The notes under the pieces were generated by a model. That model was not told where the DNA came from and searched no databases. It worked only from the letters and a program-made list of their open reading frames with translations. A stretch of DNA of 54,857 nucleotides, taken from the IMG/VR virus record IMGVR_UViG_3300035698_027343; one strand, given 5' to 3'. This stretch comes from a virus. Below, piece by piece: positions 21,604-22,612 of the stretch. Made by a program: the position numbers and the translations under genes. Within the stretch, counting starts at the first letter, position 1; the number at the start of each line of letters is the position of its first letter.

Positions 21604-21800
21604 TAGGCCACTCCTGTAGATAGGCCGAATCGACCAAGAAGCTCATCCAGGTTCGTAGTCACAGCAGAGACCGTAGCCTCCTCCTGGACACCAATGGCCG
21701 ATTCTACACCACGAAGGAATGTCACTTCCGCCTCATACTCTGCTTCCTTGGCGTCTATGAGCTCCACTAGCGCATCCCGTAGATCTTCTAGGTTGCTCAT
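21603..21800 (-). CDS. small acidic protein (65 aa)
   Basis: ORF track. Coupled overlaps on both sides. Confidence 0.4.
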   Translation of the reverse strand: MSNLEDLRDALVELIDAKEAEYEAEVTFLRGVESAIGVQEEATVSAVTTNLDELLGRFGLSTGVA

Positions 21801-22612
21801 AAGTACTTCTCCATCTTCTTAGCGATGGACCTCTTAGTCTGCGACACCTTGGAGTCACTCCAGCCCAGTGTTCTGGCGATTTCGCCAGTGCTGGTCATCT
21901 TGGGCTTGCCGCCGTAACCGGTAGCGTACTCAAAGACCTGCAGCTCCGTAGGAGTGAGCTCGTAAGGGATGAGCCGCAGTACTTCTCGGGACTTGGGCAT
22001 CTCGTCTAGGAAAGGATTCTCTACGCCAGGCTGGTCAATCAGGTCCTCTCGGAGCTCCTGAGAGAGTAGCGTCACGGTGTTTACCGAGACCTGCATCCTG
22101 TCAGCAATTTCCTGGGCCGTGGGCTCTCTGCTGAGCTCTTCTCTTAACGAGGACTGGGCGCGTAGGTAGTCTCCCACCTTATTGGCCCTATCCTCCGTGA
22201 TTCTGGAGAGGTTCTGCTGCTGCACCACGTAGCGCTTCAGCCCCTTCAGCTCATGCGTGAGGAAGGTGTGCATCTGCGCTTTGGTGGGGTCGTACCTACG
22301 GAGGCCTTGGATGGTCTTCCTAGTGGCCTCAGCGTTCAATACCTCCCGGCTGATGGGAACTCTGCCAGCAAAAGTACGTACCCGATTCTGTACCAGAGGT
22401 TGAAGCGACTTGAGCAGCGGCTCCATATGCTCTGGCTGCTCTCCGTTATCCTTCCAGGTACGCCACATCTCCAACTCATCCTGGCGCTTGTTGGTAGTAG
22501 GGTACCTCCACTCCTGAGGGAAGTCGTACCTCGGGTTCTCTGGCGGCTTATTAGCCGCCATCTGGCCGAACTGAAACGGTTTGAACAGACTAGGCGGGCG
22601 GGGTAGTGGCAC
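21797..22612 (-). CDS. sigma-70-family-like transcription factor (271 aa)
   Basis: C-terminal segment ELTPTELQVFEYATG...TSTGEIARTLGWSDSKVSQTKRSIAKKMEK resembles a sigma region 4 HTH. Upstream segment PTAQEIADRMQVSVNTVTLL resembles a region 3 HTH. Confidence 0.5.
   Translation of the reverse strand: MPLPRPPSLFKPFQFGQMAANKPPENPRYDFPQEWRYPTTNKRQDELEMWRTWKDNGEQPEHMEPLLKSLQPLVQNRVRTFAGRVPISREVLNAEATRKTIQGLRRYDPTKAQMHTFLTHELKGLKRYVVQQQNLSRITEDRANKVGDYLRAQSSLREELSREPTAQEIADRMQVSVNTVTLLSQELREDLIDQPGVENPFLDEMPKSREVLRLIPYELTPTELQVFEYATGYGGKPKMTSTGEIARTLGWSDSKVSQTKRSIAKKMEKYL

Follow-up and report, generated by a model that had tools for sequence, protein, structure and literature searches.

A diverged sigma-70-family factor in the baseplate operon of a phage lineage and its possible link to a strand-specific GGYATAAG promoter class

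Phage-encoded sigma factors are well known. Two jumbo-phage reviews, of 2021 and 2026, describe phages with multisubunit RNA polymerases (RNAPs) that lack sigma homologs, and sigma homologs in RNAP-less phages that use the host core enzyme. Salmonella phage Arash and Vibrio phage D69 contradict this dichotomy, as they encode a bacterial-type RNAP of their own and a sigma together; the only mention of this combination in phages that we found in the literature is the Arash isolation paper (PMC10585845), in passing. Here, we describe a sigma-70-family gene in a viral sequence of 54,857 nucleotides, IMG/VR record IMGVR_UViG_3300035698_027343, hereafter the window. The gene occupies positions 21797–22612 of the minus strand and encodes 271 residues from a GTG start codon. 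Homologs of this protein have already been annotated as sigma factors (Arash gp10 and JGI entries). Its context is noteworthy given that a sigma gene in a baseplate operon and a strand-specific GGYATAAG motif persist together across a very deep split, and that in Arash, the only relative in culture for which proteomics exist, the sigma is seen in virions beside a phage-encoded bacterial-type RNAP.

We are confident that the open reading frame (ORF) at 21797–22612 encodes a genuine, strongly diverged sigma-70-family factor, a judgment based on sequence profiles and a structural model. A first-pass annotation, made from the nucleotide sequence without database searches, had proposed such a factor from a region-3-like segment and a region-4-like helix–turn–helix (HTH), and both elements have counterparts in Pfam. 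Sigma70_r3 matches residues 146–181 (E = 1.8e-8, 34.8 bits against a gathering score of 25.3), and Sigma70_r4 matches residues 219–267 (E = 2.2e-4) with 21.1 bits, slightly below its cutoff of 24.1; the HTH peptide TSTGEIARTLGWSDSKVSQTKRSIAKKM, residues 239–266, lies within the latter match. The ORF also matches PHROG 351, "RNA polymerase sigma factor" (2e-8), and two NCBIfam models that both cover regions 2 and 3, namely FliA/WhiG (residues 66–188 on model positions 1–124, E = 4.6e-9) and SigB/F/G (E = 1.8e-8). An AlphaFold2 (AF2) model with a predicted local distance difference test score (pLDDT) of 86.8 has the helix pattern sigma2, sigma3, linker, and sigma4. Foldseek comparison of this model with the PDB returned exclusively sigma factors as top matches (sigma-S, sigma-A, sigma-B, WhiG, and sigma-32, probability 1.00), with low TM-scores that are expected because these are multidomain proteins with different domain arrangements.

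The predicted domains follow one another along the minus strand. Residues 1–40 (22493–22612) form an N-terminal extension that is unstructured in the model (pLDDT 52–81 over residues 1–30) and partially conserved in the subfamily. It aligns with longer homologs through an FP..W..P motif, and this homology supports the long reading frame with the GTG start. The sigma2-like domain (residues 41–133, 22214–22492) comprises regions 2.1–2.4 and is supported by NCBIfam, the PDB profile search described below, and AF2 helices with pLDDT above 90. It contains the features YDP...TF and the invariant residues R127, Q133, and N134, and the residues typical of regions 2.2–2.4 (YDP, TF, R127, and QN..RI.E) are invariant or almost so throughout the family. 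The helical sigma3 domain (residues 140–192, 22037–22195) is the most strongly conserved of all parts. A disordered linker resembling region 3.2 (residues 190–204, pLDDT below 50) leads into sigma4 (residues 207–270, 21803–21994), which consists of four helices with pLDDT above 90 and includes the HTH GEIARTLGWSDSKVSQ. The sigma2, sigma3, and sigma4 domains of the sigma-70 family are all present, sigma2 in a strongly diverged form. Core binding and promoter-specific initiation by the protein are predicted, with indirect support from a conserved promoter class of sigma-70-type geometry and from the bacterial-type RNAP of Arash and D69, both described below.

A profile of the family, built from a 40-member alignment and searched against all PDB sequences, matched 59 distinct chains, every one of them a sigma factor (best E = 6.8e-10, to SigA 233–360). 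WhiG, SigB, SigF, and FliA were aligned through sigma4, with WhiG spanning profile positions 37–250 of 260. Within the 40 members, Pfam detects r3 in all, r4 in 20 (best 6.2e-6), and r2 in a single one; the proposed check against sigma region 2 and 4 profiles is borne out by r4 and the full-length sigma models, but not by Pfam r2 taken alone. The best profile matches are to the bacterial group-3 factors FliA/WhiG (sigma-28) and SigB/SigF/SigG, which are likewise composed of sigma2, sigma3, and sigma4 in approximately 230–280 residues without region 1.1. However, only the N-terminal half of each NCBIfam model aligns to the window protein, and its scores stay well short of the curated cutoffs (36.4 against 189.6 bits for TIGR02479, and 34.4 against 234.35 for TIGR02980). 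It further differs from the group-3 factors in a region 2 that lies beyond the reach of Pfam r2, in its phage-specific N-terminal extension, and in the location of its gene in an operon of virion genes. From its sequence, the protein has a group-3-like layout but falls outside the FliA/WhiG and SigB/F/G equivalogs. The -10 elements of sigma-28 (GCCGATAA) and sigma-B (GGGTAT) have a GC-rich prefix followed by an ATAA-like part and are in this style similar to GGYATAAG, a resemblance that we treat as a lead only.

The subfamily is large: an exhaustive profile search recovered 574 representative clusters at E ≤ 1e-30. The window protein has 46 close metagenomic homologs with identities of up to 91%, some on contigs of 144–199 kb and several already labeled as sigma factors by JGI. 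Among annotated phages, it matches only Arash gp10 (WGL32461.1, "RNA polymerase sigma factor") and its homologs in three 187-kb Vibrio phages, D69, D181, and D148, at 30–35% identity (tblastn, E = 5e-17 for gp10 and 1e-14 for the Vibrio homologs). Arash gp10 has the same domain order as the window protein and a different sigma4 recognition helix (GKNINQYNY, against GWSDSKVSQ in the window). Two subfamily members carry additional domains: P0365 (L281 1497–2825) is fused to an InPase domain in a single ORF, and P0409 (728 residues) has a KilA-N domain after the sigma.

The sigma gene is embedded in a block of giant structural proteins, as the first-pass annotation had recognized, with neighbors of 1033, 1095, 2095, and 1582 residues. 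Upstream, the 1033-residue structural protein (23113–26214, minus strand) has an N-terminus similar to the D69 counterpart of Arash gp8 (a weak tblastn match, E = 7e-4), which is annotated as "cell wall hydrolase, structural protein"; the gp8 N-terminus also matches syntenic genes in viral contigs L005, L006, and L008. Between this hub-like gene and the sigma gene lie two small coupled ORFs of 82 and 84 residues (22590–23089, minus strand), which match no family and take the position held in Arash by gp9. A Shine–Dalgarno (SD) sequence precedes the first, an ATGA overlap joins it to the second, and the second overlaps the sigma gene by 23 nt; no promoter- or terminator-like signals were seen on the sigma strand. 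Downstream of the sigma gene are immunoglobulin-like and baseplate proteins, among them the 2095-residue Baseplate_J protein of the same operon (11346–17633, minus strand; Pfam E = 2.7e-8), which is a homolog of Arash gp13 (tblastn E = 8e-15).

The gene order gp6-like, gp8-like, one or two small ORFs, sigma, and Baseplate-J is common to the window, Arash, D69, and five sigma-bearing viral contigs of 94–197 kb (L005–L009), and in Arash and the three Vibrio phages the sigma gene fills the same slot as in the window, between the gp8-like hydrolase or hub and the Baseplate-J protein. The sigma gene is a fixed member of the tail/baseplate late operon across a deep phage clade. Only four window proteins are detectable by BLAST in Arash (gp6-like, sigma, Baseplate-J, and a helicase); given that the sigma and the helicase are among these four, the sigma and the motif have been retained across a very deep split. 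Genes for terminase, portal, capsid, and sheath are missing from the window, as are tRNAs, and it therefore seems to be an incomplete genome.

The RNAP of Arash consists of gp206, a fused beta and N-terminal beta' (Rpb2_6 at 2.8e-56, followed by Rpb1 domains 1 and 2), and gp216, the C-terminal part of beta' (Rpb1_5); gp196 is a second sigma factor, and the RNAP of D69 is the same as that of Arash. In the mass spectrometry (MS) of Arash virions, gp206 ranks first in abundance among proteins, gp216, the SNF2 helicase gp217, and gp10 are abundant too, and the second sigma gp196 is not on the list; gp10 has 100% coverage with 24 unique peptides and 467 spectra (PMC10585845). The peptide density of gp10 in this sample is akin to that of portal and capsid proteins and unlike that of enzymes, which have 2–14 peptides. 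The first-pass annotation had treated a sigma factor and a structural component as mutually exclusive; this is a false dichotomy, as Arash gp10 is a sigma by sequence and yet is abundant in virion MS.

Several further observations concern RNAPs and sigma control in these phages. A large metagenomic family of phage RNAPs consists of single-polypeptide beta–beta' fusions of approximately 2,050–2,110 residues (L077, L117, and L130; P0167–P0286). They are found on contigs of approximately 180–220 kb and are 31–36% identical to Arash gp206; longer members of 2,400–3,400 residues contain the homing-endonuclease-type domains PF14528 and PF05204, which suggests inteins. The RNAPs of the Arash clade are composed of a beta–beta'N protein (approximately 1,520 residues) and a separate beta'C, or have beta alone (approximately 1,115–1,140 residues). 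On its non-structural strand, D69 encodes VPHD69_0034 (L280 1372–1911), whose annotation is that of an anti-sigma factor similar to T4 Srd; besides possessing an RNAP and a sigma, such a phage may also target the host sigma.

The GGYATAAG motif, described in the first-pass annotation as genome-wide, is real and is not genome-wide. It occurs nine times on the plus strand of the window and never on the minus strand, against an expectation of 2.0, and none of 100 shuffles reached nine copies; all sites are confined to 31.5–54.2 kb, opposite in strand to the structural block and away from the sigma gene. For k-mer statistics, a maximal-order Markov model proved uninformative, and an order-2 model and simulations took its place. 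At +6/+7 past the octamer, the sites share T followed by a purine. With up to one mismatch, the extended pattern GGYATAAG-N5-TR is found 13 times on the plus strand and never on the minus strand of the window (simulated means of 2.9 and 3.8), and in Arash 45 times on the minus strand and 5 times on the plus strand (simulated means of 14.6 and 13.9). The exact octamer GGTATAAG occurs in Arash 30 times on the non-structural strand and once on the other, where 2.1 copies are expected per strand. On the structural strand of both genomes, the extended motif falls below its simulated mean, which suggests selection against spurious promoters or a tie to the phage program.

The placement and architecture of these sites resemble those of promoters. 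In both genomes, the class precedes non-structural genes on the strand opposite the structural block: the Arash sites lie 20–45 nt ahead of an SD sequence and ATG, and the window sites stand before every plus-strand gene island (31.6–35.3 kb and 48.1–54.9 kb). In L006, L008, and L009, GGCATAAG borders the structural block and is directed away from it. GGCATAAG is favored in the window clade, unlike in Arash, where GGTATAAG is favored, and D69 has the variant tGTTATAAG; the third base of the motif is C in the window clade and T in Arash and D69. At -18 to -15, the window and Arash sites share a weak element rich in A, which gives a spacing of approximately 17 bp to the YATAAG hexamer. Read from sequence, the class runs from a -35-like element through a GG "extended -10" and a -10-like hexamer to a start site, in a geometry of the sigma-70 type. 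All window sites end in the final G of the motif, as do approximately 30 of the 37 sites in Arash. In host sigma-70 promoters, a highly conserved -7 T stands at this position. The near-invariant G, together with conservation across distant phages, argues for a phage-encoded specificity factor. We conclude that GGYATAAG is a real promoter class that is conserved in Arash, which makes a phage-specific transcription program likely. The stronger label "autonomous" given by the first-pass annotation requires an RNAP of the phage itself, such as Arash and D69 encode; none was found in the window, and the label falls short for the window to that extent.

In Arash, a second motif, CTAAAATA, is located 20–35 nt upstream of genes on the plus (structural) strand, with 8 copies against 0.85 expected. 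It precedes gp2, gp185, gp188, the portal gene gp204, gp212, the beta'C gene gp216, gp218, gp241, and the endolysin gene gp39, so that RNAP genes and the portal bear this late-type motif, and it frequently stands back-to-back with GGTATAAG in reverse complement. In D69, CTAAAATA is found approximately 75 nt upstream of the pair formed by the gp9-like gene and the sigma gene. We saw no convincing counterpart at the gene starts of the window structural strand. The presence of CTAAAATA besides GGYATAAG in Arash suggests two promoter classes for two sigmas.

Based on these observations, we tentatively propose that the sigma is delivered by the virion and reads GGYATAAG early promoters, a reading that we regard as plausible rather than probable. 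The window sigma would be synthesized late, together with the virion proteins, packaged in the virion in the manner proposed for Arash gp10, and delivered along with the DNA; as the next infection begins, the delivered sigma would steer an RNAP core to GGYATAAG promoters. If the phage encodes a bacterial-type fused beta–beta' enzyme in the style of Arash and D69, this would supply the core; otherwise the host core would be used. Packaging is further favored by the InPase fusion of P0365, as this domain is typical of virion or ejected multidomain proteins, and by the late-type CTAAAATA of the Arash RNAP and portal genes. No early-class promoter precedes the sigma gene in the window or D69, and none is found within 1.5 kb of it in L005–L009, which suits a factor that is made late for the next cycle. 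Late synthesis, abundance in the Arash virion proteome, and the co-conserved promoter class on the opposite strand are together best explained by a cargo for the next infection. A more specific version, in which the sigma is packaged with the fused beta–beta' RNAP and the SNF2 helicase and ejected to fire GGYATAAG promoters while a second, non-packaged sigma serves the late class, is possible but doubtful.

The main rival to delivery by the virion is that the sigma is a conventional late factor, which would redirect the host or phage core to structural/late promoters in the manner of SPO1 gp34 and T4 gp55 and leave GGYATAAG to host sigma-70 or a gp196-type sigma. We judge this rather unlikely. 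It accords with the location of the gene in the late structural block, with the statement of the reviews that phage sigmas usually recruit host RNAP, and with the situation in Arash, where two sigmas face two promoter classes, the structural strand has its distinct late-type CTAAAATA, and the sole structural-strand GGTATAAG directly precedes gp9–gp10, as an early-to-late cascade predicts. This additional early-class promoter is a feature in which Arash differs from the window; the absence of one before the sigma gene in the window, L005–L009, and D69 argues against such a cascade, given that a sigma translationally coupled deep in the late operon could not precede the late genes in synthesis. 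The window structural strand moreover lacks a CTAAAATA-type motif at its gene starts, and in the Arash virion sample gp10 has among the densest peptide coverage, whereas gp196 is undetected.

Two other explanations seem less probable still. The sigma could be unrelated to GGYATAAG, which would then be an extended -10-like promoter for the host housekeeping holoenzyme, with the sigma serving some other small regulon. The consensus of the extended -10 element is TGnTATAAT, and tGGTATAAG agrees with it at eight of nine positions; yet the final G replaces the -7 T in most Arash sites and in all window sites, the motif is kept between phages with only four BLAST-detectable proteins in common, and both genomes show a deficit of it on their structural strands. 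The comparison with host promoters is set against a host identified here for Arash only (Salmonella). We regard this explanation as improbable. More improbable by far is a sigma-derived HTH protein that has lost core binding and is instead an ordinary transcription regulator or a structural or ejection protein that binds DNA. Pfam Sigma70_r2 goes undetected in 39 of the 40 family members, no curated NCBIfam cutoff is reached, and the gene is located among virion genes, all of which would fit such a protein; however, sigma2, sigma3, and sigma4 occur in canonical order with a 3.2-like linker, the region 2.2–2.4 residues are invariant or nearly so, and the bacterial-type RNAP of Arash and D69 requires a factor of this kind.

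Several points weigh against delivery of the sigma by the virion and temper our preference for it. The GGTATAAG site immediately upstream of gp9–gp10 in Arash fits a late-sigma cascade equally well, and the assignment of the sigma to the GGYATAAG class is one that we infer. The Arash virion sample is unclean, with 116 of 252 proteins detected, including ribonucleotide reductase and NAMPT (PMC10585845); as the sample contains metabolic enzymes in this way, the packaging of gp10 is putative. The sigma–InPase fusion was seen once, in P0365, on a contig of 4.7 kb. No beta or beta' was found by tblastn or by Pfam and PHROG scans of all large ORFs of the 54.9-kb window, which seems to be incomplete, or in approximately 100 kb of closer relatives. 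Two alignment-based scans of viral contigs found at least 67 and at least 80 RNAP loci, none of them on L005–L009 among the matches listed, and the matches listed by a catalytic-motif scan of DNA likewise include none of these contigs; such scans were in part limited by the patterns used. With Arash gp206 or a clade-2 fused RNAP as the query, no link to sigma-bearing contigs emerged among the best 120 matches. Walking outward from the helicase led to one 384-kb contig, which is unrelated. We also considered "Moraphage" (PMC12619734) as the lineage of the window and rejected it, as it belongs to a T4-like group without RNAP and has no relation to the sigma synteny.

The individual promoter-like sites of the window all lie on the plus strand. 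A GTCATAAG-N5-TG site at 31570–31584 stands at the head of the first plus-strand island, divergent from the structural operon, in the same layout as in L006, L008, and L009. In the second island, a GGTATAAG-N5-TG site at 48059–48073 is located 85 nt upstream of an ORF at 48152–48478, and a GGCATAAG-N5-TG site at 48484–48498 precedes an ORF at 48509–48787. They are followed by CGTATAAG-N5-TG at 48804–48818 and GACATAAG-N5-TG at 49284–49298, each with one mismatch. Further GGCATAAG-N5-TG sites are found at 49472–49486, upstream of a gene for a protein similar to Major Vault Protein (MVP), at 52324–52338, between a hairpin terminator-like sequence that it directly follows and an ATG 35 nt downstream (52367), and at 54084–54098. 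The remaining sites of this island are GGCATAAG-N5-TA at 53321–53335, GTCATAAG-N5-TG at 53437–53451, which is followed by an SD sequence and an ATG at 53462, and GCCATAAG-N5-TG with one mismatch at 54170–54184. Outside the islands, a GGTATAAG-N5-TG site at 35952–35966 has no evident plus-strand gene downstream and may give an antisense transcript or be an orphan, and a GGTATAAG site at 46790–46804, with one mismatch in its extension, lies in an ambiguous coding region and is of uncertain status. An exact octamer found inside a gene, at 52431, is without the extension and probably reflects chance.

At two sites the ATG follows only 4 nt after the octamer, namely at window 49284 (plus strand, GACATAAGaaggATG), where the mRNA is possibly leaderless, and at Arash 11588 (plus strand, GGTATAAGaaatATG), before gp9. 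Such sites would give leaderless or near-leaderless mRNAs if the start lies 5–7 nt past the motif. A CTAGC(N)TGGT-like element is present at window positions 49504 and 53344 (plus strand) and 31293 (minus strand) and at L008 541; it lies 25–40 nt downstream of several GGCATAAG sites and also occurs in the leader of a gp4-like giant gene. A role of CTAG(N0-3)TGGT as a regulatory leader site was dropped, given that the pattern occurs in coding sequence too. CGATGAC and its complement GTCATCG are in excess on both strands, with 22 and 20 copies against approximately 4 expected, as is GGTCATCG (12 against 1.1); the excess of CGATGAC could reflect codon or dipeptide bias (Asp-Asp) or a palindrome half-site.

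Among the other genes of the window, two neighbors on the minus strand may bear on transcription. The SNF2-family helicase (36790–38511) is 41% identical to Arash gp217, the virion-detected neighbor of beta'C, and its homologs adjoin RNAP genes in Arash-like contigs; by analogy with RapA (PMC7824862), it is a possible partner of the transcription machinery. Directly upstream, a multidomain protein of 986 residues (38515–41475) contains AAA_18 and InPase (PF18823, 1.8e-36) domains. This InPase domain is the same as that fused to the sigma in P0365, and PHROGs ties it to minor-head, DarB-like, and virion structural proteins. The 986-residue protein and the helicase may be ejected proteins connected with transcription.

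The plus-strand islands hold genes of a different kind. The small island at 31582–35277, inserted between two minus-strand blocks and provided with its own GTCATAAG site, encodes an ATP-dependent DNA ligase-like protein (PHROG 114, 1.7e-11) and a DUF4265 protein. In the second island, an ORF of 902 residues (49550–52258, plus strand) has a GC content of 0.64 against 0.55 and matches the Major Vault Protein shoulder domain (PF11978, 3.5e-18) and Vault repeats, with a weak SPFH/Band_7 match. It has GGCATAAG upstream and the hairpin terminator-like sequence downstream. A protein similar to MVP and SPFH is unusual in a phage.

If virion delivery is correct, the pairing of a bacterial-like RNAP of the phage itself with canonical sigmas would be widespread, extending over hundreds of metagenomic lineages, and Arash on Salmonella would offer a tractable system, with two sigmas, two promoter classes, and one RNAP. 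Arash and D69 are the closest described systems, and they share with the window a YATAAG promoter class that is placed opposite in strand to the structural genes. Among better-known phages, T4 gp55, SPO1 gp28 and gp34, and the sigmas of RNAP-less jumbo phages likewise tie a phage sigma to a temporal promoter class. However, the genes for all of these sigmas are outside the baseplate operon, we found no report of the presence of these proteins in virions, and T4 gp55 is without sigma3 and sigma4. Sigma-like specificity subunits of phage multisubunit RNAPs are represented by phiKZ gp68 and AR9 gp226, which differ from the window sigma in being part of non-virion enzymes and in having no sequence similarity to sigma factors. 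The virion RNAPs of N4 (vRNAP) and phiKZ/AR9 and gp66 of crAss-like phages are analogous in another respect, as transcription proteins that are made late, packaged, and ejected for early genes. For the window sigma, packaging is suggested by one Arash proteome that is none too clean, unlike in these virion-packaged systems; they in turn have no recognizable sigma-70-family protein in the virion, and the window sigma and its relatives would, if packaged, be the first virion-delivered sigmas, with a start of infection that is independent of the host sigma.

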